The notes under the pieces were generated by a model, which made no database searches, had not been told where the DNA came from, and worked only from the letters and a program-made list of their open reading frames with translations. Positions 2,330 to 55,038 of a stretch of DNA of 64,000 nucleotides are shown in pieces (positions within the stretch are counted from its first letter, which is position 1; each line of letters begins with the position of its first letter). The translations under genes and the position numbers were made by a program. The stretch comes from Gammaproteobacteria bacterium (GTDB lineage: Bacteria > Pseudomonadota > Gammaproteobacteria > Eutrophobiales > Eutrophobiaceae), in NCBI GenBank assembly GCA_038922795.1, contig JBCKWI010000003.1, positions 5,118 to 69,117 of the forward strand, given 5' to 3'.

Positions 2330-4135
2330 ATGTTTGATTACCGGATAATGAAAATGGCAAAAAAAGAAAAAACATCAAAACAGAACCTCACGGTCAGTCT
2401 GGACAAGAATGATCTGGACGAAATATTCGAAGAAGTCGAAAAAAGTCAACTACGAAAAAAGAATAAAAAGAAAACCGAAAAACAGGAACCGTTGGAGAAA
2501 CAGCTTTGGAAAGCGGCGGGTAAACTGCGCAAGAACATTGACGCCGCCGAATACAAGCATATTGTGCTTGGCCTGATCTTTCTGAAATACATCTCCGACG
2601 CCTTCGAAGAATTATTCAACAAGCTGCAAGCGGGTAAAGGTGACTATGCCGGGGCCGACCCGGAAGACAAGGATGAGTACAAGGCCGAGAATGTCTTCTT
2701 CGTACCACCCACAGCGCGTTGGTCATTTCTGTTATCCAAAGCCAAACAACCTGAGATTGGCAAGTTTGTCGATGAGGCGATGGATGCCATTGAAAAGGAA
2801 AACGCCTCATTAAAAGGAGTGCTGCCAAAAGTCTTTGCACGGCAAAACCTCGATCCCGCCAGTTTGGGTGGATTAATCGATCTGGTCGGTAATATTGCGT
2901 TAGGTGATGCCAAGGCCAGAAGTGCCGATGTACTCGGCCATGTGTTTGAATATTTCCTCGGGGAATTTGCACTGGCTGAAGGCAAACAAGGCGGACAATT
3001 CTATACACCGCGCAGTATTGTTGAATTACTGGTGGAAATGCTGGGACCCTACAAAGGCCGGGTGTTCGATCCCTGTTGCGGCTCCGGCGGTATGTTCGTG
3101 CAATCGGAAAAATTCGTGGCCGAACATCAGGGCAAGATCAATGACATCTCCATCTACGGACAGGAAAGCAACCAGACCACATGGCGGCTGTGCAAAATGA
3201 ACCTTGCCATTCGTGGTCTTGACAGTTCACAGGTGAAATGGAACAACGAGGGATCATTTTTAAATGATGGTCACAAGGATTTGAAAGCCGATTTTGTCAT
3301 TGCCAATCCACCGTTTAATGACAGCGACTGGAGCGGTGAACTCCTGCGCACCGATGGCCGCTGGCAATATGGTGCGCCACCCACGGGCAATGCCAACTTT
3401 GCCTGGTTGCAACATTTTGTTTATCACCTCTCCCCCACCGGCCAGGCCGGTGTAGTGCTGGCAAAAGGGGCTTTAACCTCTAAAACCTCCGGCGAAGGTG
3501 AAATCAGAAGGCGTTTAATCGAAGAAGGCAACCTGATTGATTGCATTGTTAATCTCCCCGCCAAACTGTTTTTAAATACCCAGATCCCGGCAGCGTTGTG
3601 GTTCATGAGCCGTAATCGCAAAGGCACCTCTCCCGCCGGAAGAGGCGGGGGTGAGGGATTCCGTAACCGCAGCAATGAAATCCTCTTTATCGATGCCCGC
3701 AATATGGGTCATTTGATCAATCGCCGTACCCGTGAGCTTTCCCATGAAGATACCAAACACATTGCCAACACCTACCATACATGGAGAAACAACCACTCTC
3801 CCTCCAAAACGCATCGTCATTCCGGCCAAGCGAAGCGTGAGCCGGAATCCAGTAAAAATACCAACACACATCGTCATTCCGCACTTGATGCGGAATCCAG
3901 TCAATTAATCTATCAAGACATTCCCGGCTTCTGCGCTTCAGTCTCCCTGGATCGTGTAAAAGAACTGGACTACGTATTAACTCCAGGCCGTTATGTGGGG
4001 TTACCGGATAATGACGATGATTTTAATTTCAAGGAACGATTCACATCACTCAAAGCCGAGTTTGAACAGCAGTTAAAAGATGAAGCGAAACTCAATAAAA
4101 TTATTGCTGAGAATCTAGCGAGGGTGAAGGTGTGA
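2330..4135 (+). CDS. hsdM: type I restriction-modification system, DNA methyltransferase subunit M
   Basis: It has the HsdM N-terminal domain ([32 protein letters not shown]), the SAM motif ([11 protein letters not shown]) and the catalytic NPPF ([11 protein letters not shown]). The real start is probably ATG 2348 or 2354 (MKMAKK/MAKK). It carries an in-frame 123-nt palindromic repeat insertion near the 3' end. Confidence 0.92.
3813..3901. repeat. Two small palindromic units (catcgtcattccggc...gccggaatccagt and catcgtcattccgca...tgcggaatccagt) inserted in frame inside hsdM
   Basis: Direct reading. Tandem units have ATTCCGG..CCGGAAT / ATTCCGCA..TGCGGAAT stems. Other HsdM proteins run ...YHTWR...YxDIPGFC... 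without the about 41 aa [41 protein letters not shown]. Confidence 0.7.
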
Positions 4136-5268
4136 GTGGGTGGAGAGAATATAAACTTATAGAGATTACTGAGCCAGTAAAGGAAACATACTTACCAACT
4201 GCTTCAGAAGAACTAGATTACATTGGGCTAGAGCATATCGGACAAGAAAGTTTACGATTAATAGCTATAGGTAAATCATCAGATGTGACAAGTAATAAAT
4301 TTCTATTTAGAGAGAACGATGTTCTTTTTGGGAAACTTCGACCTTATTTTAGAAAAATAATTAAGGCAAAATATTTTGGTATATGCTCAACAGATATTTG
4401 GGTTTTCAGGGCAAAAAAAGGATTTTCACAAGATTTTTTATTTTATTTTCTTGCAAACTGGGATTTTGTTGATACTGCTAATGGCGGTGAAGGTGGATCT
4501 CGAATGCCCAGAGCAGATTGGAACTTCCTTAAATCTACATTATGGAATGTTCCAGATCATACTGAGCAAAAAGCCATCGCATCAGTCCTCAGCAGTCTGG
4601 ATGACAAAATCGACCTGCTTCACCGCCAGAATAAAACTCTCGAAGCCATGGCTGAAACCCTGTTCAGACAATGGTTCATCGAAGAAGCAAGAGAAGATTG
4701 GCAGGAAAAACCTCTAAGCAAAATTGCAAATTTTTTGAATGGTCTTGCTTGTCAAAAATATCCTCCAAAAAACGAAATTGATAAATTACCCGTATTAAAA
4801 ATAAAAGAACTAAGCAGTGGTATATCTGATTCATCTGATTGGGCAACAACTGACGTAAAACCTGAATATGTTATTGAGAATAGCGATGTGATTTTTGCGT
4901 GGTCAGCATCCCTTATGGTTAAGATTTGGGATGGAGATAAATGTATCTTGAACCAACATTTATTTAAAGTTAGCTCTACTGAATATCCAAAATGGTTTTA
5001 TTATTGGTGGTGCAAACATCATCTGGAAGAATTCATATCGATATCTGCGAGTCATGCAACAACTATGGGCCATATCAAGCGAGGTGACTTGGATGTGGCT
5101 ATGGTGCTGATTCCAAAGGAAAGCGAGTTCAAATCTATCAATTCACAAATGGAACCATTACTCGATAAGCAAATAGAAAACTCTAAACAAATTCAAATCC
5201 TCGAAAAACTCCGCGATACATTATTACCTAAACTCATGAGCGGCGAAATTAGAGTCAAGATAAATTAA
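4132..5268 (+). CDS. hsdS: type I R-M specificity subunit S
   Basis: Its ATG overlaps the hsdM stop (ATGA). Two AT-rich target-recognition domains flank a GC-richer conserved central region (...[37 protein letters not shown]...), and a C-terminal conserved helix ([17 protein letters not shown]) is present. Confidence 0.88.
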
Positions 5269-5269
5269 C

Positions 5270-6769
5270 ATGGACGGGATATTCATAAATAAAATCAATA
5301 TTAAAAATTACAAATGTTTTGTTGATCAGGATATCAATTTCAGCGTTCCTGACGGTAAAACACTTGGTAGCGGCCTGAACATTTTAATTGGCGAGAACGG
5401 AGTTGGTAAAACAGCTGTGCTTGAAGGATTCAACATGTTGACACAGACATATTTTACTCTTGAAAATCGATTGGATATTCGAGATTTCAACGATTTCAAA
5501 AAAGAAATTCAAATCACGGCCCAGACTGAAGAATTTAGGTGCAAGATGCCTTATCCGGGCAATTATTTTATTTCCAATGGCCTTGAGATAACAGCAAAAA
5601 ATAGAGACAGAAAAGCATCTGGGAAATTATTGTCCTCTTCATTCTCTACATCTTCTTCGTTCATGCCCACAACAGAGTATTACTTCAACTCAAAAGGTGA
5701 ACCATCAAAGAACCTGATTCCCCTTTATACAATGTATAAGGATGACACCATTGAGGGAGACGGAATAAACATTTTTTATTTTGATAAGAACAGAACAAGA
5801 CAATTGTCATCTGGCACTTATAAAACAACGTTTGAACGTATATGCGACGACTTGAATTGGAGATTTAATAAAGAATTAACTCCTGAATTAATAGATACAG
5901 TGCTTGAAAATATATCAGGCGAATATTTTAAAACTGTCAGAGAGAACGCCCAAAAAGGAATTGGACAAAAAATAGCTGATGAATTAGCTAGCTTTTTTAA
6001 TTCAGAATCATACAAAAACCTAAAAATAGAACTTCTAAATCTTTTACACCCTTACACAGATGCGTTTTTTGCAGTAAGAGAGGAATCTGACTTAAAGCAA
6101 ATAAAAACAAAAGATCTTGGTTCAGGAGTCGAGATGATCCTTACTCTTTTACTGCTTAAAAATATAGCAAGCCAATCAAAAGGCAGTATTATTTTCCTAA
6201 TTGATGAACCTGAATTGCATCTCCATCCAAAAGCACAAGATAAATTAATGGAGTTATTGTTGGATGAGTCGATTGATAAACAAATTATATTAAGTTCTCA
6301 TTCGCCTTACATTTTCAGGAATTGTCTTGATAAAGCTGGCTCTATCATAGTAATGAATAAAGCAGCTAATTTTTCTATAAATTTTCATTATGCTCAGAAA
6401 AATGAATGGGGGCTATTCCCTTGGAGTCCCTCTTGGGGAGAAATTAATTTCTTGGCATTGAATTTGCCAACAGTTGAATTTCATAATGAATTATACGGTA
6501 GGTTACAAGAAATATCGGGACAGAATAGAATAGAAAACTTTGATAAGTGGTTGAATGAAAAATTTGGAATCCCATTAATTTCTTCATGGATAAGACTTAA
6601 TAATGGCGTAGCTGGAAATACTGATACCGTATCTCTTCAAACATATATTAGGCATTCTATACATCATCCTGAAAATAATTTAAATAAACCATTTACAGTT
6701 GATGAATTATCTCAATCTATTCAGAAGATGATCCATGTCTTAAGAAAGCTCAATGACCAAAATCACTGA
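5270..6769 (+). CDS. ABC/OLD-like AAA ATPase (AAA_15/AAA_21-type) embedded in the hsd operon; putative anti-phage/Abi accessory protein
   Basis: Walker A is GENGVGKT and Walker B plus D-loop is IIFLIDEPELHLHPKAQ, with H-loop LSSHSP. It is AT-rich. It starts 1 nt after the hsdS stop and overlaps the hsdR start by 17 nt. No TOPRIM or HNH domain was recognised in the C-terminal about 150 aa. Confidence 0.7.
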   Translation: MDGIFINKINIKNYKCFVDQDINFSVPDGKTLGSGLNILIGENGVGKTAVLEGFNMLTQTYFTLENRLDIRDFNDFKKEIQITAQTEEFRCKMPYPGNYFISNGLEITAKNRDRKASGKLLSSSFSTSSSFMPTTEYYFNSKGEPSKNLIPLYTMYKDDTIEGDGINIFYFDKNRTRQLSSGTYKTTFERICDDLNWRFNKELTPELIDTVLENISGEYFKTVRENAQKGIGQKIADELASFFNSESYKNLKIELLNLLHPYTDAFFAVREESDLKQIKTKDLGSGVEMILTLLLLKNIASQSKGSIIFLIDEPELHLHPKAQDKLMELLLDESIDKQIILSSHSPYIFRNCLDKAGSIIVMNKAANFSINFHYAQKNEWGLFPWSPSWGEINFLALNLPTVEFHNELYGRLQEISGQNRIENFDKWLNEKFGIPLISSWIRLNNGVAGNTDTVSLQTYIRHSIHHPENNLNKPFTVDELSQSIQKMIHVLRKLNDQNH

Positions 6770-9700
6770 AAATACTATCGAAGACTTTGCCATCGAGTTA
6801 TTCGAAGCTCTCGGTTATGACTATGTGTATGCACCGGATATCGCGCCTGATGGTGATGAGCCGGAGCGCAAAATTTACGAAGACGTATTACTGATTGGCA
6901 GATTGCAGAACGCCATTCGCCGGATTAACCCTTCCATATCGGGTGATGCCCAACTAGAGGCATTAAAAGAAATTCAACGTATTCATTCCCCGGAATTATT
7001 AACCAACAATGAGACTTTTCATCGGCTTCTGACTGAAGGCGTGAATATCAGCTATCAGCAGGATGGCAACCAACGCGGCGATCTGGTGTGGCTGGTTGAT
7101 TTCAAAAATCCGGAAAACAATGAATTTTTGGTGGCGAATCAATTCACGGTCATTGAAAACGGCCAGAACAAACGCCCGGACATCATCCTGTTTGTGAATG
7201 GTATTCCTTTGGTGGTGATCGAGTTAAAGAATGCCGCCGATGAAAATACAACTATCCTTTCCGCCTTCAAACAATTGCAAACCTATAAGGAAACGATCTC
7301 CAGCCTGTTTACCTACAATGGCTTGATGGTGATTTCTGATGGGCTGGAAGCCAAGGCAGGTTCATTGTCTGCGGGCTTCAGCCGGTTTATGACCTGGAAA
7401 TCAGCCGATGGGAAGGCCGAAGCCTCGCCCTTGATCAGCCAACTGGAAACCCTAATCAAGGGCATGTTGAACAAGCACACCTTGCTGGATTTGATTCGTC
7501 ATTTTATCGTTTTTGAAAAGTCCAAAAAGGAAGATCTCAAAACCGGTGTCACCACCATTTCCACCGTCAAAAAGCTGGCTGCTTATCATCAATACTATGC
7601 CGTGAACCGTGCAGTAGAATCAACTTTGCGTGCCGCTGGTTATATTTGTGAAGATACTGGCGGAAAGAACATCATGGAGTCGCCGGAAAGTTATGGTTTA
7701 CCGGGGGTAAAAGCCCAACCCGCAGGCGACAAGAAAGGTGGTGTGGTCTGGCATACACAAGGCAGTGGCAAGTCTCTATCCATGGTGTTTTATACCGGCA
7801 AGATTGTATTGATGATGGATAACCCCACCGTGGTGATGATTACCGACCGTAATGATCTGGATGATCAGCTTTTCGATACCTTTGCCGCCTCCGCGCAATT
7901 ATTAAGACAGGAACCGAAACAGGTTGAAGATCGGAAACAACTCAAGGAATTATTAAAAGTGGCCTCCGGCGGCGTGATCTTTACCACCATCCAGAAATTC
8001 CAGCCTGAAGAAGGCAATATCTACGAAGAACTCTCTGCACGTAAAAACATAGTGGTTATCGCGGATGAAGCACACCGCACCCAATATGGTTTCAAGGCAA
8101 AGACCATCGACGAGAAAAATAAGCAGGGTGATGTGGTTGGCAAGAAGATTGTTTATGGTTTTGCCAAGTACATGCGCGATGCCCTGCCCAATGCGACTTA
8201 TTTAGGGTTTACCGGCACTCCGATTGAAAAAACGGATATCAACACGCCCGCCGTGTTCGGCAATTACATTGATATTTACGATATTGCCCAGGCGGTGGAA
8301 GACGGCGCCACGGTACGCATTTATTATGAAAGCCGGTTGGCCAAGGTCAATCTCAGTGAGGAAGGTAAAAAGCTGATCGCTACGCTGGATGAAGAACTGG
8401 ATCAGGATGAGCTCACCGAGACCCAGAAGGCCAAGTCGAAATGGACGCAACTTGAGGCATTGGTTGGCAGTGAAAACCGCATCAAAAAGATTGCTCAGGA
8501 TATCGTCACTCACTTTGAACAACGTCAGGCCGTGTTTGAAGGCAAAGTTATGATCGTCGCTATGTCGCGCAGGATTGCCGTGGATTTGTATGAAGCGATT
8601 ATCAAGCTGAAACCTGACTGGCATTCTGATGATTTGAGTAAAGGGAAAATCAAGGTAGTGATGACAGCGGCTTCATCTGATGGCCCGAAGATGGCCAAAC
8701 ATCACACCACCAAAGAGCAACGCAAGGCACTGGCCGAGCGCATGAAGGCCAATGATGATGAGTTAAAGCTGGTGATTGTGCGGGATATGTGGCTGACGGG
8801 GTTTGACGCGCCAAGTATGCACACGCTTTATATCGACAAACCCATGAAAGGACACAACCTGATGCAGGCGATTGCACGGGTCAACCGTGTTTACATAGAC
8901 AAACCCGGTGGGTTGGTTGTGGATTATTTAGGAATCGCGGCTGATCTTAAAGAGGCTTTGTCATTTTATTCCGATGCAGGTGGCAAGGGTGATCCAACTA
9001 TTCTTCAGGAACAGGCAGTGCAATTGATGCTGGAAAAACTGGAAGTGGTTGCAGGTATGTATCATGGTTTTCCTTATGAGGAATATTTTGAGGCAGATAC
9101 TTCCAGAAAGCTCTCGCTGATTCTTGCCGCAGAGGAACATATTCTAGGTATTGAAGATGGCAAGAAGCGTTATATCAATGAAGTCACTGCGTTGTCGCAG
9201 GCATTTGCAATTGCCATTCCCCATGCACAAGCCATGGACGTTAAGGATGAAGTGGCATTCTTTCAGGCTGTTAAAGCGCGATTGGTGAAGTTTGACAGTA
9301 CCGGATCAGGAAAAACAGATGAAGCGATAGAAACCACCATTCGCCAGGTGATTGATCAGGCATTGGTGTCTGAACAGGTCATTGATGTGTTTGATGCTGC
9401 CGGTATCAAAAAGCCGGACATTTCGATTCTTTCAGAAGAATTCCTGTTGGAATTGAAAGGAATGAAACACAAAAATATCGCGCTGGAGGTGTTAAAGAAA
9501 CTGCTCAATGATGAAATCAGGGCGCGGGCCAAGAAGAATCTGGTAAAGAGCAAATCCTTAATGGAAATGCTGGAAACCGCAATCAAAAAATACCATAACA
9601 AGATATTGACGGCTGCGGAAGTAATCAATGAGCTTATTATACTGAGCAAGGAAATTGTAAAGATGGACAGCGAAGCCGCGGCTCTGGGCCTGTCTGATTT

Positions 9701-9986
9701 TGAATATGCTTTTTATACTGCTGTTGCCGATAATGACAGCGCTAGAGAATTAATGGCGGTAGCCAAACTCAGGGAATTGGCGGTTGTGCTCACAGAAAGA
9801 GTCCGGCAAAACGCTTCAATTGACTGGACAATTAAAGAAAGCGTGAAGGCCAAACTGAAAGTAATTGTAAAGAGAACTCTACGGCAATACGGTTATCCGC
9901 CTGATATGCAAAAACTCGCGACTGAAACTGTACTAAAACAAGCGGAAATGATTGCGGATGAACTGGCACATACAGAATCAATCTAG
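6753..9986 (+). CDS. hsdR: type I restriction enzyme R subunit (helicase/endonuclease)
   Basis: 1077 aa. It has the HsdR N-terminal nuclease region (MTKITENTIEDFAIELFEALGYDY...), DEAD-box helicase motifs (VVWHTQGSGKS; VVIADEAHRTQ; LGFTGTPI) and a C-terminal HsdR domain. Confidence 0.93.
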   Translation: MTKITENTIEDFAIELFEALGYDYVYAPDIAPDGDEPERKIYEDVLLIGRLQNAIRRINPSISGDAQLEALKEIQRIHSPELLTNNETFHRLLTEGVNISYQQDGNQRGDLVWLVDFKNPENNEFLVANQFTVIENGQNKRPDIILFVNGIPLVVIELKNAADENTTILSAFKQLQTYKETISSLFTYNGLMVISDGLEAKAGSLSAGFSRFMTWKSADGKAEASPLISQLETLIKGMLNKHTLLDLIRHFIVFEKSKKEDLKTGVTTISTVKKLAAYHQYYAVNRAVESTLRAAGYICEDTGGKNIMESPESYGLPGVKAQPAGDKKGGVVWHTQGSGKSLSMVFYTGKIVLMMDNPTVVMITDRNDLDDQLFDTFAASAQLLRQEPKQVEDRKQLKELLKVASGGVIFTTIQKFQPEEGNIYEELSARKNIVVIADEAHRTQYGFKAKTIDEKNKQGDVVGKKIVYGFAKYMRDALPNATYLGFTGTPIEKTDINTPAVFGNYIDIYDIAQAVEDGATVRIYYESRLAKVNLSEEGKKLIATLDEELDQDELTETQKAKSKWTQLEALVGSENRIKKIAQDIVTHFEQRQAVFEGKVMIVAMSRRIAVDLYEAIIKLKPDWHSDDLSKGKIKVVMTAASSDGPKMAKHHTTKEQRKALAERMKANDDELKLVIVRDMWLTGFDAPSMHTLYIDKPMKGHNLMQAIARVNRVYIDKPGGLVVDYLGIAADLKEALSFYSDAGGKGDPTILQEQAVQLMLEKLEVVAGMYHGFPYEEYFEADTSRKLSLILAAEEHILGIEDGKKRYINEVTALSQAFAIAIPHAQAMDVKDEVAFFQAVKARLVKFDSTGSGKTDEAIETTIRQVIDQALVSEQVIDVFDAAGIKKPDISILSEEFLLELKGMKHKNIALEVLKKLLNDEIRARAKKNLVKSKSLMEMLETAIKKYHNKILTAAEVINELIILSKEIVKMDSEAAALGLSDFEYAFYTAVADNDSARELMAVAKLRELAVVLTERVRQNASIDWTIKESVKAKLKVIVKRTLRQYGYPPDMQKLATETVLKQAEMIADELAHTESI

Positions 9987-10153
9987 AAATTTTCGATTAA
10001 TTTCAGTTGTTGCCATAACCATTTTTTACAGGCTATTATCAATCTGTGCAGTGTATGTGAGCGATACAGGGAAGTGAGGCTCCCTAAGAAACAACCACTT
10101 TACAGAGGGGTTTTTATTATCCAACATTGGCGTTAGCCCGAGAGATAACGGAA

Positions 10154-10307
10154 GATGAAGAAAAAAATCAAATATACTGACGATCCACCAGATGGAGAAC
10201 CAATCGGAGAACTTATTCCAATCCCGGATTTTCTTCCTCCCCCTGAAAAACTGGTATTCAAGAAAGACCCTTCATTGAAGAAGCCCAGTCCTTCCAGGAA
10301 AAAGTAA
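10154..10307 (+). pseudogene. 51-codon ORF resembling the N-terminus of a BrnA/CopG-family antitoxin, apparently truncated by the downstream repeat cluster
   Basis: MKKKIKYTDDPPDGEPIGELIPIPDFLPPPEKLVF... resembles my memory of BrnA-like antitoxin N-termini, and then runs into repeats. No partner toxin is present upstream. It is below the 60-aa ORF cutoff. Confidence 0.25.
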
Positions 10308-10404
10308 GCAGAACATTTAGTGTCCCCTTCGGGGATGGTGGAAACCCCTCGCCTTCAGGCGAAGCAAGCTAGTGCGACATGTTCGCGTAGCGAACCTGAG
10401 CGTA

Positions 10405-10560
10405 AAACCCTCTCCCCTCGGGAGAGGGCACGATTACAGGATGTAATCGGTAGAGTCGAGCCGGGAGCGGAGACCGAGGGTGAGGGAAAAGCGATCAGGA
10501 TCATGCTGAGGTACAGCTTCCCTCATCCCCTGCCCTTCTCCCGGAGGGAGAAGGGGGTGT
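10405..10560. repeat. Composite REP cluster (family A units interleaved with a family B unit gattacaggatgtaatcggtagagtcgagccgggagcggagaccgag)
   Basis: Direct reading. ccctctcccctcgggagaggg, gggtgaggg and ccctcatcccc...ctcccggagggagaaggggg are present. The predicted ORF 10320-10640 lies wholly in repeats and is spurious. Confidence 0.8.
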
Positions 10561-10677
10561 TAGCCAGGTTTGAAGCCACCGGCTTGCAGCCGGTGGTAGT
10601 TCACTGGTTACGCAAAAAACCCCTGTCACATTTGATATGACAGAGGTGTGAGGAGAAGGTGAAATTTCCGGTCAGGT

Positions 10678-17628: not shown

Positions 17629-18435
17629 TCAGGGTGCATCGATCGCCGTACGTAATTCAGTAAGATAAGCAGTGACATCCTGAATCAGTTTTTCCTTGTG
17701 TTCACCCAACTGCGCGATACGCTCCACCAGGGCGCTGCCCACAATGACTGCGTCACTGAAACCGGCCACTGCCTTTGCAGTTGCTGCATCCTTGATCCCG
17801 AAACCTACACCAACCGGGAGGCCCGTTTTACTCCGTATATGTGCGATCTTTTCGGCAACATCATCAACATTCAAACGGTTGCTGCCGGTAACTCCCTTGA
17901 GCGAGACATAATACAGGAAACCACTCGCTTTGGAGCAGATCAGTGCCAGCCGTTCATCACTGGTAGTCGGTGATAACAGAAAAACCTGATTGAGATCATA
18001 ACGATTCAGTTCTGATTGCAATTCATCTGACTCTTCGGGTGGCAGATCAACCAACAGCACCCCGTCTACACCGGCCTCACTTGCCCGTTTGGCAAACACC
18101 TGATAACCCATCACCTCTATCGGATTGAGATAACCCATCAGGATGACCGGTGTTTTTTGATTTTCCTTGCGAAAGCCTGCAACGATACGCAGTACATCAT
18201 TCAGACTGGTAGCATGTTTCAAGGCACGTTCGCTGGATCGTTGAATAACCGGACCATCCGCCATCGGATCAGAAAACGGGACACCCAGCTCTATGATGTC
18301 CGCGCCACCCCTGACCAGGGCTTGCATCAATGGCAGGGTCACTTCCAGATCCGGATCACCGGCGGTGATAAAAGGAACCAGTGCCTTGCCACCGCACTTG
18401 TGCAGATTGTCAAAACAATCTTTTATTCGACCCAT
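17629..18435 (-). CDS. trpA: tryptophan synthase alpha subunit
   Basis: 268 aa. TrpA motifs (ELGVPFSDPMADGP; GFGI). Confidence 0.95.
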   Translation of the reverse strand: MGRIKDCFDNLHKCGGKALVPFITAGDPDLEVTLPLMQALVRGGADIIELGVPFSDPMADGPVIQRSSERALKHATSLNDVLRIVAGFRKENQKTPVILMGYLNPIEVMGYQVFAKRASEAGVDGVLLVDLPPEESDELQSELNRYDLNQVFLLSPTTSDERLALICSKASGFLYYVSLKGVTGSNRLNVDDVAEKIAHIRSKTGLPVGVGFGIKDAATAKAVAGFSDAVIVGSALVERIAQLGEHKEKLIQDVTAYLTELRTAIDAP

Positions 18436-18569
18436 AATGTTTTGCCTGTCGTTCCAACGATAAAGAAGATATTAAAAGGAATACCAGAGATCAGATAACC
18501 AGATGATTACTTGAGATTAATACTAAGGAACCTCTGATTAAGTGTCTTTGCCGTCATGCTGGTGAAAAC

Positions 18570-18898
18570 GACCTACACGAAGTAGGAAATGCCGCAAGAC
18601 GCCTATAGGGATATAGGCGGTAGAGCAACGCACGACTCCAGGGATGGATGAGGTAGAATCGCGTCGGGAACAGCGATCGAGGAGCCAAAGCCGAGGACAC
18701 GACGACATGGATGTAGGAGGTACGATTACAGGGAAGTAATCGGTAGAGTCGAGCCGGGAGCGGAGACCGAGAGTAACGTCGGGAACAGTTACCGAGGAAG
18801 TCCATAGCGGCCAGCATCCAGTAAATAATTGTTTTGACTGGGTTCTGGCCTGCGCCAGAATGACAGCTTGTAGCCACTGGTGACTTGATCAGAACATC
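18570..18898. repeat. Mosaic cluster of short palindromic units (family B) ending in the family C terminal module agaatgacag...cttgatcagaac, lying inside the trpB-trpA intercistronic space
   Basis: Direct reading. The same units (gtagagtcgagccgggagcggagaccgag; catggatgtaggaggtacgattacagggaagtaatcgg) are seen at 10430, 28130, 55610 and 56830. Confidence 0.8.
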
Positions 18899-18909
18899 CC
18901 TAAGTTTTC

Positions 18910-19107
18910 TCATGATGGCGGTATTTGCCTGAGTTTCAGTTCAAGCAATTCAATCGCCATATCGGGTATTTCTTCATGATTTTTTGATTCATTCGATGTC
19001 AGCCAGTGGTCTACCATTTCGCGTTTGACACTGACCAGTTCGGCGACCTGTCTGCGATCCAGTTTATAGTCTGCTATCAGTTCTATTAATCTTTCCCGGT
19101 TATTCAT
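18910..19107 (-). CDS. small putative HTH protein (65 aa) between trpB and trpA
   Basis: The ORF begins 7 nt after the trpB stop on the same strand. A helix-turn-helix-like segment (RQVAELVSVKREMVDHWL) is present. It could be a repeat-associated artefact. Confidence 0.35.
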   Translation of the reverse strand: MNNRERLIELIADYKLDRRQVAELVSVKREMVDHWLTSNESKNHEEIPDMAIELLELKLRQIPPS

Positions 19108-19116
19108 GTTAATACC

Positions 19117-20358
19117 TCACAAATTGATACCTTCACGGGTCGCAACGGTCTGTATGTCCTTGTCACCACGCCCGGATAGATTGACAACAATAATCTCGTC
19201 TCTGGACATTTGCGGCGCAAGTTTTTCCGTATAGGCCAGGGCATGACTGGATTCCAGCGCCGGCATGATCCCTTCGGTGCGGGTCAGGTTATGAAATGCG
19301 GCCAGCGCTTCATCATCATTTATCGCTACATATCGGGCGCGGCCGGTGTCCTTCAGCCAGGCATGTTCCGGGCCCACACCGGGATAATCCAGCCCTGCGG
19401 ATATTGAATGTGTCTCTATGATCTGACCATTTTTATCTTCCATCAGGTAAGTCCGGTTACCATGTAATACCCCCGGACTCCCTGCACTCAGTGGTGCGGC
19501 ATGACGGCCGGTTTCTATGCCGTCACCACCGGCCTCAACTCCGTACATCTGGACATTTTTATCATTTAAAAATGGATAAAATAATCCGATGGCATTGGAA
19601 CCGCCGCCCACACAGGCCACCAGCGCATCGGGCAGGCGGCCAGTCATATCAAAACATTGCTGTCTGGCCTCACGGCCGATAATCGCCTGGAAATCACGCA
19701 CCATCGCCGGGTAGGGATGTGGACCGGCAACGGTACCGATAATATAAAATGTATCATCGACATTCGTGACCCAGTCACGCATGGCTTCATTCAAGGCATC
19801 TTTCAGGGTTTTCGATCCGGCCTCGACTGCAACCACTCTTGCGCCCAGCAGTTTCATCCTGAACACATTGACGGATTGCCGTTTGATGTCTTTTGAACCC
19901 ATGTATACAACACATTCGAGTCCCAGTTTGGCTGCAACAGTGGCACTGGCGACACCATGCTGGCCAGCGCCAGTCTCCGCGATGATCCGGGTTTTGCCCA
20001 TACGGTGTGCCAGCAGTGCCTGACCAACAGTATTGTTGATCTTGTGCGCACCGGTATGATTAAGGTCCTCACGTTTAAGATAGATCTGCGCGCCACCCAG
20101 TCTTTTCGACCAGCGTTGCGCATGATAAAGAGGTGAAGGCCGGCCGACGTAGTGTTTTAATTCACTGTCAAGCTCGGCAAGAAATTCCGGATCCTTGAGG
20201 TAACGTTCATAAGCACAGGTCAATTCATCGAGAGGGCCCATTAATGTCTCTGCGACAAATCTTCCACCATAGGGTCCAAAATGGCCCCTGGCATCAGGCA
20301 GTCTGATTTCTTCATTTGCCGTGACTGCCACGGCTTTAACCGGACCGGATTTTTGCAT
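19117..20358 (-). CDS. trpB: tryptophan synthase beta subunit
   Basis: PLP lysine motif (HTGAHKINN) and GGGSNA. 413 aa. Confidence 0.95.
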
Positions 20359-20998
20359 TTCTGACCTCTCGAATAAATTCTGCGATTTTCCCTGCGTCCT
20401 TGATACCTTTGGCTGATTCTACACCACCGCTGACATCCACCGCATACGGTTTGGTCTGCTCAATTGCGGCAGCAACATTTGCCGGAGTAAGACCACCTGC
20501 CAGGATCAACGGTTTGCCGGGATGTGCCGGTATCCTGGACCAGTCAAACGCCTGGCCGGTCCCGCCGTGCAGACCTTCAACATAGGTATCCAGTAATAAT
20601 GCAGAGGCATCAGCGTAACGGATTGCGGCAGCTTTCAGATTCACATTATCCTGCATTCTGACTGCCTTGATAAATGGTTTTGAGTAACGCGAGCATAGCT
20701 CCGGTTCCTCATCGCCATGGAACTGGAGGGCATCCAGGTCAACCGCTTCCAGTACCCTGGTGATTTCATCAGGTGCTGCATTAACGAATAAACCCACCTT
20801 GCATACAAACGGGGGTAAAACATCAACAATTGCACAAGCTGCCTGGGTAGTGACAGCCCGCGGGCTGGCCGGATAAAAAACCAGACCGATGGCATCAACC
20901 CCCAGATATGCGGCTGCCAGGGCATCCCGCGGACGGGTAATGCCGCAGATCTTTACCCTTACCCTTGCATATTCAGGACTTTCAGATAACTTCTTCAC
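20336..20998 (-). CDS. trpF: N-(5'-phosphoribosyl)anthranilate isomerase
   Basis: TrpF TIM-barrel motifs (VKICGIT; GLVF). Overlaps the trpB start by 23 nt. Confidence 0.9.
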
Positions 20999-21046: not shown

Positions 21047-21835
21047 TTACCGTGTAACCACCAGAGGGTTAAATTCCGCCAGAACAGGAATATTGAATTT
21101 TTCCGGATAAGTGACATTCATAAGATATAAACCGTCCGGTGCTGCTGTGACACCCCCCAGCGTCCTGTCCCTGGCCGCCAATACCTGCTGCGACCATTCA
21201 ACGGGCGCCTTGCCCGTTCCGATTTCCATCAAAACGCCCGCAATATTCCTGACCATATGATGCAGAAAGGCATTGGCCTCTATATTAATAACCACAGTGT
21301 CGCCCTGTCTGTTCACATCCAGTTGCCGCACTCTGCGCACTGGACTGTTGGACTGGCAATCAACCGCACGGTATGAGGTGAAATCATGTTCCCCGATAAG
21401 ACAATCCGCGGCCTGCTGCATTCTGTGTTCATCCAGCGATCGGCACTCCCAGGTCACTCTGTGATTGTATATGCCCGGCCGCGCAGACCGGTTCAGAATA
21501 ATATAACGATAGCTGCGGCCCGTAGCCGAGAAGCGGGCATGAAAATCATCAGCGGCAGGTTGCACCCACAGGATGCTGATATCCTGCGGAAGGTTCACAT
21601 TACCTCCTAACACCCAGGAACGCATTTCACGCACGGCATCCGTTTCAAAATGTATAACCTGATGCAGCGCATGTACCCCGGTGTCCGTGCGTCCGGCGCA
21701 TTGGACTATTACTGTCTGATCCGCAACCCTGGACAATGCCTCTTCAACATGTTGTTGAATTGATCTGGCATGTTTCTGCCGTTGCCAGCCTGAATATTGT
21801 GTACCGGAGTATTCCAGACCCAGGACAATTTTCAT
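21047..21835 (-). CDS. truA: tRNA pseudouridine(38-40) synthase
   Basis: Catalytic Asp motif (GRTDTGVHA). 262 aa. Conserved position next to fimV and trpF. Confidence 0.92.
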   Translation of the reverse strand: MKIVLGLEYSGTQYSGWQRQKHARSIQQHVEEALSRVADQTVIVQCAGRTDTGVHALHQVIHFETDAVREMRSWVLGGNVNLPQDISILWVQPAADDFHARFSATGRSYRYIILNRSARPGIYNHRVTWECRSLDEHRMQQAADCLIGEHDFTSYRAVDCQSNSPVRRVRQLDVNRQGDTVVINIEANAFLHHMVRNIAGVLMEIGTGKAPVEWSQQVLAARDRTLGGVTAAPDGLYLMNVTYPEKFNIPVLAEFNPLVVTR

Positions 21836-27022: not shown

Positions 27023-28099
27023 CTAACTGAGTGCCGCAAGAACCGCATCACCCATCTCAGAGGTCGATACACTGCGCATACCCGGCGTACAGATGTCCGC
27101 CGTTCTTACCCCATCTTTCAAAACTTTTCTCACCGCAGTTTCAACACGTGCCGCTTGTTCCGGTTGGTTGAGCGAATAACGCAACATCATTGCCACAGAC
27201 AAAATAGTGGCGAGCGGGTTGGCCTTGTTCTGTCCGGCGATATCCGGTGCAGAACCATGTATGGGCTCATAGATACCCTGCCCGGTCTCATTGATCGAGG
27301 CAGAAGGCAACATACCAATCGAACCTGTCAGCATGGATGCCAGATCAGACAGGATATCGCCAAACATGTTCTCGGTAACAATAACATCAAACTGTTTTGG
27401 TTGACGCACCAGTTGCATGGCGGCGTTATCAACGTACATATGCTGAAGTGAGACATCCGGATAATCTGCAGCCACTTTTGTTACCACTTCCCGCCAGAGT
27501 TCCGTCGCCTCAAGCACGTTCGCCTTGTCGACAGAACACACCTTGCGGTTGCGTTTTTGAGCAATAGTAAATGCCACACGGGCAATCCGTTCGATCTCGG
27601 ATTCACTGTAGACCAGCGTATTAAACCCTTCTCTCTGTCCGTCTTCTCTTGTCTTGATCCCGCGCGGTTGACCAAAATAAATACCCCCGGTCAGCTCACG
27701 CACAATCATGATATCCAGACCGGAGACAACCTCCGGTTTTAATGTCGACGCATCCGCCAGTTCCTCGTAAAGCAATGCCGGCCTGAGATTCGCATACAAA
27801 CCCAGACCAGCGCGGATAGCCAGCAGACCACGTTCCGGCCTGAGGGCCCGTTCGATGTTTTCCCATTTCGGGCCACCGACTGCTCCAAGTAATATTGCAT
27901 CACTGGCTTTTGCTTTTTCCAAAGTTTCAGCAGGCAAAGGTGAACCCGCGGCATCCACAGCACTGCCACCAATAAGACCATGTTCGATCGCAAGATCAAG
28001 ATCATGCCTCTGGATTAATGCATGCAGTATTTTTTCAGCCTCGGCAACGATCTCAGGGCCGATACCATCACCGGGCAGAATCAGGATTTTTTTGCTCAC
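27023..28099 (-). CDS. leuB: 3-isopropylmalate dehydrogenase
   Basis: [10 protein letters not shown] and the IDH/IMDH signature (NLFGDILSD). The ORF track begins at a TTG (28126). GTG 28099 ([12 protein letters not shown]) is the more likely start. Confidence 0.93.
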
Positions 28100-28129
28100 C
28101 GGGTATTTCCACTTCCAGAAAAACAATTA

Positions 28130-28690
28130 ATCTACCGCCGCTCGACAACTTGTTCCAGACGTTGTCCCGGTCTCTGTTCCAGACGCGACTCTCGACCGCT
28201 GTTCCCGACGCGGTTCTACCTCCCCCGTCCATGGGGTCGTACCGATTCCATCCATGGAATCGTACCACCTCGACAATTGCTCCAGGCATTGTTCTACCTC
28301 CCACGTCCATGTGGTCGTACTTCCCTGTAGGCGTCCCGCGCAGTCGCTATCAGCATCCCGCTTCATGCGACACTAATACATCCCTGTATGTCGTCCTGCA
28401 CCCGCGGAATACGACCGCCATGGATGGCGGAAGTGTCGAAAATGTAAGGAACAATTTTTCGACCCGTACCTCCTGTACATAAATGTCAGGAACAATTTTT
28501 CGACCATTACGTCCATGTAAATCGCCGCTCCTCGGCTTTGGCTTCCTGCGTCGCCCTACCTCCTGCATCCTTGCAGTCGTGTGCAGTCGCTGTCAGCATC
28601 CTGCTTTACGCGACACTAATACATCCCTGTATGTCGTCCTGCACCTGCGGCATACCGTACTTCCTGTACATAAAAAGGCTGCACAGCATA
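28130..28690. repeat. About 560-bp mosaic array of short palindromic units (family B), including a pair of 68-bp direct repeats (28338-28405 and 28583-28650)
   Basis: Direct reading. Units such as gtcgtaccgattccatccatggaatcgtacc, tccctgtaggcgtccc, tacctcctgcatccttgcagtcgtg and aggaacaatttttcgacc x2 are present. There are no uniform spacers. Confidence 0.85.
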
Positions 28691-28692
28691 CC

Positions 28693-29598
28693 TCAACTTG
28701 AGGACTTGTTCGAGGAGGCAACCGGTTGTAAAGAATCCATTGCCGTTATCCATGCTGCCAGCACCACCAGCAATCCACCTGCCCATTCCCTGATAGTCAC
28801 AATTTCGTTCGTTAACAAGGCTGCTGATACAGCACCGGCTACGATTTCAAACAAAAATATCACCGCTGATCGATGCACCGGCAGATGCGTCACACCATAT
28901 TGGGCAGTGTAGGTCATGACCAGCATACCGATACTACCAACACCCATGGCAAAACCCAGTGTCGCAGGGGTGAACACCGGTGCAGGCGGTTGCATGACAA
29001 AAATACCGATAGCGGCCAGGAAAAGTACACCCAGGCAGGCCGGGCCCATTTTCAGCACTATCGGGATAGCGCCGGTCTTGCGTACCAGGACATTCATAAT
29101 GGCAAAGGCAAAACCGGCAGTAATGGCCAGGATATCAGCCACATTGGTTGGCAGCAGAATTCCGGAACCGGGCTGCCACAGCATAATACCGGCCCCGGAC
29201 ATCGCCATGGCTATCGAGAGCCATGCCAGGTTTGACAAGTGTTCTTTTAACAGGAATTTACCCAGCAACACTGTCCAGATAGGTGAGAGATAAAACAGCA
29301 AGAGCACCCGGACGACATTGCCCTCGAGCAGGGCCAGTATAAACCCGAGGTTTGCCCAGCCGGCTGTGATACCAATCAGGAGCAGGGCCAGTGGCTGCTG
29401 CATGATTCCGGAACGGTTTATCCAGAGCACTGGCAACAGGGGTATTAACGTGGCAGTGTATATCAACACTGAAGTCCAAAGACCCGATACACCCATCTCT
29501 TCCATGAGCCGCAAGGGATACCAGAGTAATCCCCATAAGGTAGCTGCAATCAGGCAACTGATAACAGGGAGAAAAGCATGAGGATTTTTGGTTGGCAT
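28693..29598 (-). CDS. EamA/DMT-family membrane transporter
   Basis: 10-TM profile with two EamA-like halves. The verified ATG at 29598 gives MPTKNPHAFL. The longer track ORF to 30024 overlaps dapC and is spurious. Confidence 0.8.
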   Translation of the reverse strand: MPTKNPHAFLPVISCLIAATLWGLLWYPLRLMEEMGVSGLWTSVLIYTATLIPLLPVLWINRSGIMQQPLALLLIGITAGWANLGFILALLEGNVVRVLLLFYLSPIWTVLLGKFLLKEHLSNLAWLSIAMAMSGAGIMLWQPGSGILLPTNVADILAITAGFAFAIMNVLVRKTGAIPIVLKMGPACLGVLFLAAIGIFVMQPPAPVFTPATLGFAMGVGSIGMLVMTYTAQYGVTHLPVHRSAVIFLFEIVAGAVSAALLTNEIVTIREWAGGLLVVLAAWITAMDSLQPVASSNKSSS

Positions 29599-45258: not shown

Positions 45259-46508
45259 CAGAGACCATTGCCACGCTCCCGCTGTTTGCGGGTTATGGTA
45301 TTGAACTCGAATATATTATTGTTGATCGCGATCATCACAATGTTCTGCCTGTTACCGATCAGTTACTCAAAGCCGCCACAGGTGACTATGTCAGTGATTA
45401 TGAGGAAGGATCCATTGCCTGGTCGAATGAACTGGTACTGCATGTCATTGAATTAAAGACCAACGGGCCGGTCAGCATGCTTACCGGTTTACCGGATCAT
45501 TTTTTATCCAATATCCACCGTATCAACAAAATCCTTGAAAACATGAACGGCAGGCTGATGCCAGCAGCTATGCATCCCTGGATGGATCCTTTTAAAGAAA
45601 CCCGATTGTGGCCGCATGAGTCTTCCGAGATCTATGAAAGCTACAATCGTATCTTCAATTGCCAGGGACATGGCTGGTCGAACCTGCAAAGCATGCATAT
45701 CAATCTGCCGTTTGCAGATGATCATGAGTTTGCGCTTTTACATGCTGCCATCCGTATATTGTTACCGATTATGCCGGCACTCGCCGCGAGTTCACCGATC
45801 ATGGATGGTCAATATACCGGCCTGCTGGATACGCGGCTGGAAGTCTACCGGCGCAATGCCGAAAAAATCCCCAGCATCACCGGCCTGGTGATTCCGGAAC
45901 CGGTGCATCATTATCTCGATTATCAAAACATGATCCTGCAGCCCATGTATGCTGCCATTGCCCCGCATGATCCGGAGGGCATTTTGCAATATGAATGGTT
46001 GAATTCCAGGGGAGCCATTGCCCGCTTCGACCGTAACGCCATTGAGATACGCGTGCTGGATACACAGGAGACGCCGCAGGCCGATATCGCCATTGCCGCC
46101 ATGATCATATCCATCCTCAAGAAGCTGGCGGCTGCGATATGGTCTGATGTTACAGAACAAAACCAGCTCGACACAGAAACTCTGGCAGAGCTCTTGATGT
46201 TGACCATCAAAGAAGGTGAACTGGCTACAATTAAAAATAAGTCCTATCTTGAATTATTCGGTTTTCCGGATCGCAAAGGCCTGGTACAGGAACTCTGGCA
46301 ACACTTGCTTGAATCAATATCAGCAGATGATACGGATTTAATCCCGGAACTCAGAAAAACAATAGAATACATCATTCATTGCGGGCCACTGGCACGCCGC
46401 ATCAAGCTGTCGATCGGCAAGGAGTGCAAACGTTCTCACATGCAAGAGTCTTATCGCCAGCTCTGCGATTGTTTAAATAACGGACAGCTCTTTGAAGGCA
46501 TCGACTAG
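45255..46508 (+). CDS. GCS2/YbdK-type carboxylate-amine ligase (glutamate-cysteine-ligase family 2)
   Basis: The N-terminal GYGIELEYIIVD pattern is characteristic of GCS2 (GxExEhxxVD). About 417 aa. Start overlaps the upstream stop (ATGA). Confidence 0.7.
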   Translation: MTETIATLPLFAGYGIELEYIIVDRDHHNVLPVTDQLLKAATGDYVSDYEEGSIAWSNELVLHVIELKTNGPVSMLTGLPDHFLSNIHRINKILENMNGRLMPAAMHPWMDPFKETRLWPHESSEIYESYNRIFNCQGHGWSNLQSMHINLPFADDHEFALLHAAIRILLPIMPALAASSPIMDGQYTGLLDTRLEVYRRNAEKIPSITGLVIPEPVHHYLDYQNMILQPMYAAIAPHDPEGILQYEWLNSRGAIARFDRNAIEIRVLDTQETPQADIAIAAMIISILKKLAAAIWSDVTEQNQLDTETLAELLMLTIKEGELATIKNKSYLELFGFPDRKGLVQELWQHLLESISADDTDLIPELRKTIEYIIHCGPLARRIKLSIGKECKRSHMQESYRQLCDCLNNGQLFEGID

Positions 46509-47367
46509 AAAAATAATAATAACCTGTGAACATGGCGGTCATCATGTGCCATTGGAATATCGCCACCTGTTTAACAAACAGCAGTCCGTCCTGGGTTCTC
46601 ACCGCGCCTGGGATGCAGGGGCACTGCTACTTGCCAGAGAGCTTGCCAAAAAATTAAATGCGCCGCTCATAGTTTCTGAAATAACCCGGTTACTGATCGA
46701 TCTCAACCGTTCCCTGCACCATCGTGTTCTCTTTTCAGAATTCACCAGAGATTGTGATAAAGAAACCAGAAATCAAATTCTTCAGGAGTATTATTTTCCA
46801 TACCGGAACCGTGTCGAGAATGAAATTACAAAAGCATCGAAAGGGGGGAAACCAGTAGTCCATTTTTCTATCCATTCGTTCACGCCCAGACTTGGTAGTG
46901 AAATACGTAAAGCCGATATCGGATTGCTGTATGACCCGACCAGGAAAGGCGAACGTGATCTCTGCATCCAGCTACAGGCTATTCTGCAGGGAATTAACCA
47001 TCTCCGTAAGGAACATAGTTCCCTCACCCGTGCTTCGCACGGCCTCTCCCGGAGGGAGAGGCTAATACACCCTCTCCCTCCGGGAGACGACTGCATGGAT
47101 GCAGGAGGTAGAATAACGCTTGGAGCAGTTATCGAGGGTTGGGGTGAGGGTGCCGTGGATGGTAATGCAAACCAGCCTATCGTCCGGCGTAATTATCCCT
47201 ATCGCGGTAATGCAGATGGTTTTACAACTTATTTAAGAAAAAAATATCCGGGATCAAAATACATTGGTATAGAGATCGAAATCAACCAGAAGCAGGTCAA
47301 TCATGCTGATCACTGGAAAAGTTTACGCGAGCATATAATCAATTCTGTTATCAGACTAACAATCTGA
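46492..47367 (+). CDS. N-formylglutamate-amidohydrolase-family (FGase-like) hydrolase carrying an in-frame REP insertion
   Basis: ITCEHGGHHVP, SIHSFTP and ...RRNYPYRGN...YIGIEIEINQ fit the FGase family. A 120-nt REP element (47041-47160) is translated in frame as GLSRRERLIHPLPPGDDCMDAGGRITLGAVIEGWGEGAVDG. Confidence 0.7.
   Translation: MKASTRKIIITCEHGGHHVPLEYRHLFNKQQSVLGSHRAWDAGALLLARELAKKLNAPLIVSEITRLLIDLNRSLHHRVLFSEFTRDCDKETRNQILQEYYFPYRNRVENEITKASKGGKPVVHFSIHSFTPRLGSEIRKADIGLLYDPTRKGERDLCIQLQAILQGINHLRKEHSSLTRASHGLSRRERLIHPLPPGDDCMDAGGRITLGAVIEGWGEGAVDGNANQPIVRRNYPYRGNADGFTTYLRKKYPGSKYIGIEIEINQKQVNHADHWKSLREHIINSVIRLTI
47041..47160. repeat. REP family-A element (ggcctctcccggagggagaggc / ccctctccctccgggag ... 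ggttggggtgaggg) located inside a coding sequence
   Basis: Direct reading. Same family as 275-309, 10405-10560 and 61793-61912. Its length of 120 nt preserves the reading frame. Confidence 0.8.
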
Positions 47368-52092: not shown

Positions 52093-52489
52093 GCACCCGG
52101 CATGATGCGTGACCCGCTACTGTGGTCTTCAAGTTTGTATATTTAATGTATACAACCACACAATAATCATTAATGTTTTTTAAAATTTTTAAACTGGTCT
52201 ATATTAACCAAAAAAGTGGTTGTAACTGCTTATAAACAACCAAGACCTGGTCTAGTTTTATTTCAAATCTAAAAAGCACGTCTTAATCAATTAACCGATG
52301 GCAATAATAATCCATCTTTTACACATGACTTGAGTCAAAAAATCACTCTGCATACTGAATTATTTAAAATTAGTTTGATCTAGATCAAATAATTCCCGAT
52401 CTCTGATTTGTCTACCTGTCACATGGCATAATAGTTGCGGCCAAATGCTTTGAATCTATGAGTTAAACATCTAAGGAAGCTCTGAATAA

Positions 52490-52660
52490 GGTGTCATTTC
52501 GGGCAAAGCGAGAAATCTGTAGTTAAAAATGTCAAACAAAATCAAATAACCGCGAGATTTCTCGACCACTGTTCCAGACGTGGTTCTACCGCCTGCTTCC
52601 ATGCAGGCGTCCCTACGGTCGAAATGACAATAACAACTTAATCAGAGGTTCTCTGAATAA
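52490..52660. repeat. Composite palindromic repeat cluster (family C gtcatttcg-gcaaagcgagaaatctg / cgcgagatttctcgacc plus a family B unit plus the terminal module gaaatgacaa...cttaatcagag)
   Basis: Direct reading. Related copies at 54917-55020 and 60583-60648. Confidence 0.8.
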
Positions 52661-55020: not shown

Positions 55021-55038
55021 CCTTAATATCAGCCGGTT

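Follow-up and report, generated by a model that had tools for sequence, protein, structure and literature searches.

The window analyzed here is a 64,000-nucleotide stretch of a gammaproteobacterial contig (GenBank assembly GCA_038922795.1, contig JBCKWI010000003.1), and the subject of this report is the spacer that separates the tryptophan synthase genes trpB and trpA within it. This spacer occupies positions 18436-19116 (681 bp) and is a composite of two unrelated parts: an ancestral small gene, and a mobile insert in the form of a 373-bp miniature inverted-repeat transposable element (MITE) in which an array of short hairpin repeats is nested. The genes and features at the locus are listed below; accD and folC, likewise on the minus strand, make up the rest of the cluster beyond trpA.

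21047-21835, minus strand: truA
20336-20998, minus strand: trpF
19117-20358, minus strand: trpB, 413 amino acids in the open reading frame (ORF) listing (95% identity to the trpB of related locus L001; orthologous genes match Pfam PALP)
18910-19107, minus strand: conserved gene for a 65-amino-acid protein of predicted XRE-type helix-turn-helix (HTH) fold
18900-18903: target duplication CTAA on the small-ORF side (the empty site of related loci L001, L082 and L084 reads TTAA)
18527-18899: IS5-type MITE, 373 bp, a lineage-specific insertion (gap in the alignment with L001, L082 and L084)
18883-18899, minus strand: GGATGTTCTGATCAAGT, the right terminal inverted repeat (agrees with the IS5A ends at 10-12 of 17 positions)
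18527-18543, plus strand: GGAACCTCTGATTAAGT, the left terminal inverted repeat (agrees with the ends of IS5A from E. coli at 11 of 17 positions)
18523-18526: target duplication CTAA on the trpA side
18436-18522, minus strand: conserved trpA leader, intact beside trpA (near base-for-base alignment to L001, L082 and L084)
17629-18435, minus strand: trpA, 268 amino acids, intact (TrpA is 94% identical to L001 TrpA)

Related loci were fetched through TrpA, and 78 of them carry both trpB and trpA. The commonest gap between the two genes is -4, a stop/start overlap that occurs in 32 of these 78 loci, and the largest gap found elsewhere among them is 320 bp. Therefore, a spacer of 681 bp is unusual, and the initial annotation was right that the two genes are normally adjacent and that trpA is here displaced from trpB by about 680 bp. 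It was also right that trpF and trpB still overlap, the overlap being 23 nucleotides, but the small ORF that it placed 7 nucleotides after trpB in fact starts 9 nucleotides past the trpB stop codon, which is overlapped by a GAGG Shine-Dalgarno sequence. Other fillers of the trpB-trpA gap were also encountered, namely an ORF for a HicB-like antitoxin in a Gallionellales metagenome-assembled genome (L067:3677-4001) and other short repeats in the gaps of L005 and L019, which are Thiohalomonas and Chromatiales metagenome-assembled genomes. The trpB-trpA junction seems to be generally permissive after the loss of translational coupling.

The small gene is the older part of the spacer. Its 65-amino-acid product has at least 202 homologues of 62-80 amino acids, which share the invariant pattern MNNR...W-L...P-MA-ELLE. 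Every genomic context fetched for these homologues (63-100% identity) places the small gene between trpB and trpA, in the order truA-trpF-trpB-X-trpA-accD-folC, and it lies in the trpB-trpA gap of L001, L002, L082-L094 and L216-L219 at 63-92% identity. The layout in these relatives is trpB, 9-60 nucleotides, the small ORF, 36-98 nucleotides and trpA, and in the closest of them 9 nucleotides, the small ORF and 98 nucleotides give a trpB-trpA spacer of about 305 bp. Since the small gene is fixed between trpB and trpA across the clade, the ancestral spacer was already about 305 bp long. Thus, a portion of about 305 bp of the displacement goes back to the conserved gene, which the initial annotation had missed. 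Because the small gene sits between the two synthase genes, we are dealing with a clade of uncultured Gammaproteobacteria that lacks trpB-trpA translational coupling.

A Pfam search with the 65-amino-acid protein returned no family at E<=10, HTH_3 and HTH_XRE included, and an NCBIfam search returned spurious matches only. An AlphaFold2 model built with 44 homologues has a mean pLDDT of 86 and consists of four helices, and its best structural neighbors in Foldseek are Aca1, C.AhdI, HigA (HigA2) and 434 Cro, with TM-scores of 0.6-0.77. The comparison with Aca1 reaches a probability of up to 1.0 at TM-scores of 0.74-0.77, with E-values of 0.05 or worse for a protein this short. Weak sequence-profile matches were obtained to the repressor family PHROG 14341 (E=7e-7) and to PDB entry 3op9 (E=0.003). 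The predicted model and these weak matches support the assignment of the small ORF product as an XRE/Cro-type HTH protein, and on this basis the label of small HTH ORF in the initial annotation can be kept. The four-helix HTH fold is common to small XRE/Cro regulators such as Aca1, the C-proteins of restriction-modification systems and the HigA antitoxins. Unlike these, the small gene belongs to no Pfam or NCBIfam family and holds a fixed place in the tryptophan synthase gene pair across a clade, and no toxin, restriction-modification or phage partner is found in its neighborhood. A clade-wide HTH gene wedged between trpB and trpA is the unusual conserved feature of this trp operon and merits follow-up.

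The younger part of the spacer is the MITE. In the alignment with L001, L082 and L084, the spacer is common to all nearly base for base outside positions 18527-18899, where a clean 373-bp gap opens. The element starts 6 nucleotides past the stop codon of the small gene and leaves the 87-nucleotide trpA-proximal leader untouched. Between 10 and 12 of the 17 positions in its terminal repeats are identical to the ends of IS5A (GGAAGGTGCGAATAAGC and GGAAGGTGCGAACAAGT), which were taken directly from the E. coli K-12 record. The end consensus of E. coli IS5 is GGAAGGTGCGAAyAAGy, and IS5 typically duplicates a 4-bp YTAR target. The insertion is absent from 13 contigs of close relatives. In 12 close relatives' contigs, where the small ORF is 91-92% identical, the spacer between this ORF and trpA is 98 nucleotides long and has no room for the MITE; L001, with a small ORF that is 89% identical, has the same empty site by alignment. 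Judged by its ends, its YTAR-type duplication, its small noncoding size and the empty site, the carrier qualifies as an IS5-family MITE. Its insertion into the trp operon is real and, given its distribution among relatives, recent. The palindromic cluster that the initial annotation described at 18570-18898 is genuine, and its limits are redrawn to those of a bounded element at 18527-18899 with the array confined to 18570-18812. The only ORF that runs across the MITE codes for 119 amino acids on the pyrimidine-rich strand (18554-18913, minus strand), and similar ORFs span arrays in 16 metagenome loci; this ORF is almost certainly spurious and liable to mislead gene callers.

The closest other relative, L215, has a small ORF that is 94% identical and carries a different MITE of the same family (L215:2698-2734, with the end GGAAGCTCTGATTAAAT) at the identical CTTA(G) site after the small ORF. 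Its contig stops 26 nucleotides into the MITE. It represents an independent insertion into the same target, and the position behind the small ORF looks like a hot spot or, failing that, a place where insertions are tolerated.

Further complete MITEs of the family, 110-295 bp in length, are present in metagenome contigs (L098, L112, L130 with two, L151 and L199). Perfect TTAA/TTAA duplications are found in L098, L130 and L151, and three of the four duplication bases match in three more copies. The window itself holds two further members, one at 52475-52652 with two GGA hairpins only and one at 54896-55022 that is 127 bp long and has almost no array, and both carry the backbone motifs TGTCATTTCG and CTACAGATTTCTCGC...GAAATGACA. 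An empty backbone of 131 bp (L130:5269-5399) consists of a terminal repeat, GTCATGCTGGTGAATACCAGCATCCAGTAAATTATTGTTTTGACTGG... and a second terminal repeat. Comparison with this empty backbone places the array of the trp copy within the loop of the backbone hairpin GCTGGTGAAAAC^...^CAGC, and the arrays of L112, L130b and L199 after CAGCATCCA^ of the backbone. Given these two different positions, arrays must have entered the same MITE backbone at least two times. The family resembles other IS5-family MITEs in its 17-nucleotide IS5-like ends, its CTAA or TTAA duplication, its size of 110-373 bp, its lack of a transposase and its presence/absence polymorphism. It differs from them in that its backbone hosts a nested array of unrelated hairpin repeats, variable in length and with two points of entry.

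The features of the array in the trp copy are listed below. Its ends were set by comparison with the empty backbone, purine content being too crude to define them.

18570-18812, plus strand: array of co-oriented GGA-loop hairpins, nested in the MITE (14 GGA versus 2 TCC)
18697-18797, plus strand: canonical four-unit module of two ANGGAX hairpins, the 30-mer unit and one hairpin with a 9-nucleotide loop (covariance model R1, 106 bits, E=4e-28; row 1 of the 64-copy alignment)
18597-18696, plus strand: second, more degenerate module (model R1, 37 bits, E=1.5e-8)
18723-18742, plus strand: hairpin CGAUUAC[AGGGAA]GUAAUCG, a hexaloop above a C-G-closed stem of 7 bp (-8 kcal/mol, z = -5.2)
18600-18619, plus strand: hairpin CGCCUAUA[GGGA]UAUAGGCG (-12.1 kcal/mol, z = -5.1)
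18742-18771, plus strand: 30-mer unit GGTAGAGTCGAGCCGGGAGCGGAGACCGAG (three exact copies in the window)
18572-18586, minus strand: weak terminator-like hairpin of 5 bp followed by UCGUUUUCAC (about -6 kcal/mol, with 17 of 200 shuffles folding no worse)

Two of the hairpins in the trp array are perfect and several are degenerate; the U2 hairpin of the array is CGAUUACAGGGAAGUAAUCG. The plus strand has 14 GGA in 240 nucleotides against a window mean of 3.7, which makes this the richest plus-strand interval of the window, and for the exact recurrence of the 30-mer (three copies) the expected number is 0. Model R1, a covariance model of the repeat module built from 64 copies, matches the window 11 times at 7 places (10.4, 18.6-18.8, 28.2-28.6, 47.1, 52.6, 55.6 and 56.9-57.1 kb) with E-values from 4e-28 to 6e-5. 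Thus, GGA density, 30-mer recurrence and covariance-model E-values all put the repeat cluster far beyond chance. The same model has no match in 89 loci from other genomes, which total 704 kb and include the trp regions of the relatives.

A degenerate pattern over the 30-mer is matched exactly in metagenomes of groundwater, marine sediment and ocean, at a total of at least 120 loci with G+C contents of 36-63%, and stem variants richer in G+C occur in hosts that are richer in G+C. This distribution suggests that the array family has long been resident in its host genomes and is not the product of one recent spread. A BLAST search of the element against plasmid and phage collections gave no match, and a literature search found no paper that contains these repeat sequences or links CsrA to MITEs or REPs; the array family apparently is widespread and undescribed in uncultured Gammaproteobacteria. 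Its units recur in the order of two ANGGAX hairpins, the 30-mer unit and a hairpin with a 9-nucleotide GGA loop, and GGTAG or GGTAC recurs between hairpins, not before every hairpin. In the cases checked by hand, units are often nested, with one unit split directly after the GGA of its loop. One example near 57000 in the window reads GAATCGCGTCGGGA|CGCC...TTTTCGA|ACAGCGATCGAG, and further nested or split cases were seen in L133, L095, L109 and L112. The preference for GGA as a target thus stands on about six hand-checked cases, a regular-expression census of split units being too noisy. Among about 118 non-redundant metagenome arrays, those between co-directional genes lie in sense orientation 19 times and antisense 11 times, which is no significant bias; the flanking genes were called crudely by longest ORF, and the class of arrays inside antisense genes consists mostly of spurious ORFs on the pyrimidine-rich strand.

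The hairpin loops of the family follow a strict code. We aligned 64 non-identical copies that had been chosen through the neighboring 30-mer and so independently of the hairpin loop. The second hairpin conforms to the pattern C[A-N-G-G-A-X]G, in which the closing C-G pair and the A are present in all 64 copies and the following G, G and A in 64, 63 and 63 of them. The position N can be any base and is missing in 6 of the 64 copies, and X is U or A. Three pairs of the stem show compensatory changes (in 12, 8 and 31 sequences), and the ANGGAX loop type occurs on 86 different stems across the arrays. Hairpins with this loop number 156 on the array (seed) strand versus 27 on the other, and non-Watson-Crick stem positions are G.T 31 times versus A.C 8 times (p = 3e-4). 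Given this excess of G.T over A.C and this strand distribution, the GGA strand is the strand that folds, either as RNA or as single-stranded DNA. The high-affinity consensus of RsmE/CsrA, known from structural work, is an ANGGAX hexaloop on a C-G-closed stem, in which N and X loop out and N can be missing (PMC4005645). The array loop pattern equals this consensus, and the hairpin at 18723-18742 in the trp copy fits it.

The sequence comparisons show that the long spacer combines a conserved small gene with a recent IS5-type MITE, that the insert is mobile and that relatives lack it. The likely explanation beyond this is that the insert is a tolerated selfish passenger rather than an evolved control device. 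The MITE landed just past the stop codon of the small gene, left the trpA leader intact and carries about nine nested, co-oriented hairpins of a very abundant mosaic family that seems to insert into hairpin loops or recombine there, in many cases directly 3' of GGA. Read antisense in the trp mRNA, the insert would add about 370 nucleotides of untranslated, C-rich, highly structured RNA, and trpA would stay co-transcribed and be translated from its own initiation region. The side effects would at most be mild Rho-dependent or structural polarity on trpA, or protection of the upstream 3' end. A tolerated insert with co-transcription of trpA is suggested because a promoter scan found no promoter-like site facing trpA, because the sole sense-strand terminator-like site in that scan is the weak hairpin at 18572-18586, and because the leader and trpA itself are intact.

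Several points weigh against this explanation. Both the co-transcription of trpA and its level are inferred. No autonomous IS5-family partner with matching ends came to light in the available DNA, and no transposase ORF lies beside the solitary terminal repeats in the fetched loci. The second MITE at the same site in the sister lineage L215 may reflect a hot spot or may hint that insertions there are tolerated or favored. Finally, the hairpin loops are strongly selected for a motif of the CsrA/RsmE code, and to call the family purely selfish is maybe too simple.

An alternative view of how the array moves, possible but held with much less confidence, is that it is a REP/REPIN-like or IS200/IS605-type (PATE) single-strand element mobilized by an HUH tyrosine transposase of the RAYT-like kind. 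Insertion in a fixed orientation 3' of GGA or GGGA would explain both the co-oriented nesting and the invariant GGA, and the MITE would be only the current carrier. Insertions directly after GGA or GGGA near 57000 in the window and in L133, L095, L109, L112 and L210 agree with this view, as do the co-orientation of the units (156 versus 27), the single-strand folding signature of G.T over A.C, the recurrence of GGTAG or GGTAC between hairpins and the independent entry of arrays into the MITE backbone at two sites. However, neither of these two backbone sites lies at GGA, the mixed orientation of arrays within 64 kb gives no visible replication-strand bias, and split units, when searched for systematically, gave too noisy a picture for a target preference to be quantified. 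As a candidate mobilizer, RAYT was rejected, since the two RAYT genes seen near arrays, those of L170 and L210, have repeats of another class on their flanks. The RAYT gene at L210:725-1354, whose product is 43% identical to E. coli RayT, has its own flanking repeats of the GTAGGTTGGATTAGCGAAGCGTTATCCGACA type and an extra premature stop, and it is split by a GGA array of about 125 nucleotides exactly at TGGGA^ACAT.

Compared with known repeats, the arrays resemble the REP/BIME elements of enterobacteria (for example, those between malE and malF) in that both are short imperfect palindromes in mosaic clusters, intergenic in high copy number and also found within operons. The use of hairpin loops as insertion targets is a further REP-like trait, and the GTAG-like tetranucleotide that recurs beside hairpins, though not before each of them, may be another. 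Unlike REP/BIME, the array units are co-oriented and not alternating, their loops are an invariant A-N-GGA-X, and the RAYT genes that were seen go with another repeat class. Unlike REPs, which are species-specific, the array family is common to genomes of 36-63% GC. The BOX elements of Streptococcus pneumoniae (boxA-boxB(n)-boxC) likewise combine fixed terminal modules with variable internal repeats and lie between genes or within operons, but their host and sequence are unrelated, and they lack IS5-type ends, target duplications and the GGA-loop code.

The match between the loop code and the RsmE consensus allows the tentative proposal that the arrays are mobile repeat modules in which selection keeps the loops as high-affinity CsrA/RsmA sites of the form C[A-N-GGA-X]G; we regard this as possible, though not probable. 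If true, the family could amount to a distributed CsrA sponge with hundreds of copies per genome, or could place neighbors that are read in the GGA orientation under Csr control, and CsrA modules would hitch-hike on IS5-type MITEs, which would be their route into the trp operon. If protein binding is real, mobile DNA would spread the binding sites of a global post-transcriptional regulator.

A stronger form of this proposal, in which the array would be, or would code for, an RNA that binds CsrA/RsmA, its plus-strand transcript sequestering CsrA dimers like CsrB/RsmZ and the family spreading such modules, appears unlikely. The near-invariance of the loop in 64 copies and its identity with the RsmE consensus, its occurrence on 86 stems, the three compensating stem pairs and the enrichment of G.U wobbles on the GGA strand would all fit such an RNA, and the array at L103:6628-6747 gives a full-length, sub-threshold match to RsmY (29.5 bits versus a gathering score of 57, E=0.0015). 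Against it, Rfam found nothing relevant in the whole window at gathering scores, no Csr/Rsm and no TwoAYGGAY match at E<=10 in 18300-19250, which contains the trp array, or in 28000-28850, and no TwoAYGGAY match at E<=1 on ten array loci. Membership in the Csr/Rsm or TwoAYGGAY families was accordingly rejected, none of the scanned arrays reaching threshold and the RsmY match in L103 being the best. The plus strand flanking the trp array has no promoter-like or terminator-like site, and a search near arrays for the GacA/UvrY box TGTAAGN6CTTACA with up to 3 mismatches found none, with fewer matches than in shuffled sequence. About 7 places per 64 kb are far too many for classical sponge genes, the arrays have no orientation bias relative to host transcription, and the trp copy has only the two perfect hairpins on a strand that is antisense to the sole known transcription. 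The conservation of the loop could instead mark a transposition target, given the insertions 3' of GGA. Neither the window nor any of the fetched loci has a csrA gene. Thus, the arrays share with the CsrB/RsmY/RsmZ sponges (Rfam clan CL00106) a tandem series of C-G-closed ANGGAX hairpins on one strand, tens of nucleotides apart, and differ from them in being mobile and nested, in their number and random gene orientation, and in lacking a GacA/UvrY box, a promoter and a terminator.

The initial annotation had proposed that the repeat cluster could act as an mRNA-stabilizing or attenuating element inside the operon. In full, this would make the stem-loops an adaptive cis element that stabilizes the upstream trpFB mRNA or attenuates trpA, in the manner of the REP/BIME between malE and malF. 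By this analogy such a role is conceivable, but we think it improbable. Stable hairpins would form on the trp-sense minus strand of the insert as well, which is C-rich and folds with z = -3.9, a weak hairpin with a U-tract lies at its trpA-proximal end, and Rho-dependent polarity is conceivable for a C-rich, untranslated sense RNA; the second MITE at the same site in the sister lineage also speaks for this proposal. However, the insert is missing from 13 close relatives' contigs with the same operon, and this is essentially the finding, the same spacer in close relatives without the repeats, that the initial annotation had named as refuting its view. The element is one of many genome-wide copies of a family that also occupies convergent intergenic regions and even the inside of ORFs. 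The hairpins are conserved on the strand opposite to trp, so that the folded GGA strand is antisense and the trp mRNA would carry its complement without CsrA-type loops, and the terminator-like site folds no better than shuffles do. These results favor a recent multicopy insertion over a stabilizer or attenuator.

An error of assembly or a chance run of low complexity is a very unlikely source of the feature: although a short palindromic contig of the same assembly breaks inside the element (L081, GCA_038922735.1, JBCKWJ010000091.1, in which a 2285-bp inverted duplication of trpB' and the small ORF has both arms ending inside the MITE, and which is probably a chimera caused by the repeat), this contig reproduces the junction of ORF and MITE exactly, the target duplication and terminal repeats are clean, many complete members exist in unrelated metagenomes, and covariance-model E-values fall to 4e-28.

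With the insert read as a tolerated passenger, the case is largely ordinary for the trp operon, a mobile repeat having entered a tolerant spacer that already existed through the conserved small gene. The lesson for annotation is that layered repeats, with units in arrays, arrays in MITEs and MITEs in operons or ORFs, break assemblies and yield spurious ORFs. What is most worth following, ahead of the HTH gene, is an array family with a CsrA-type loop code across so many metagenome loci of very different G+C content.

Elsewhere in the window, an array of about 540 bp (28140-28680, minus strand) fills the gap between a gene for an EamA-type transporter and leuB and shares the orientation of these two genes. 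Within it is a tandem duplication in which TATGTACAGGArGTACGG...GCAGGACGACATACAGGGATGTATTAGTGTCGC occurs twice, it accounts for three of the covariance-model matches, and it ends about 45 nucleotides before the leuB start codon. Another array (56840-57192, minus strand) has one MITE end (AGATGTTCTGATTAAGT after TTAA) with no partner end and adjoins an IS110 transposase fragment. This fragment of the IS110 (DEDD) family lies between two arrays (55811-56251, 146 amino acids) and is probably truncated or frameshifted.

Repeat units are also found at 47040-47165 within an ORF for an N-formylglutamate amidohydrolase (FGase; 46492-47367), the reading frame of which is unbroken. They comprise a hairpin of the CCCTCTCCC type and GGA hairpins and cover approximately amino acids 183-225, and the Pfam match of the protein extends only over amino acids 8-148. 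These in-frame repeats recall the in-frame palindromic elements of Rickettsia. A second dispersed hairpin family, CCCTCTCCC-NNNN-GGGAGAGGG, is present at 276-298, 10415-10428, 10533-10555, 47041-47063, 61796-61820 and 61884-61906. It often flanks or hosts GGA arrays, which seemingly have been inserted after its GGGAGA. A type I restriction-modification cluster occupies 2330-9986, with hsdR at 6753-9986 confirmed by Pfam; after it comes a convergent intergenic region filled with repeats (9987-10677).

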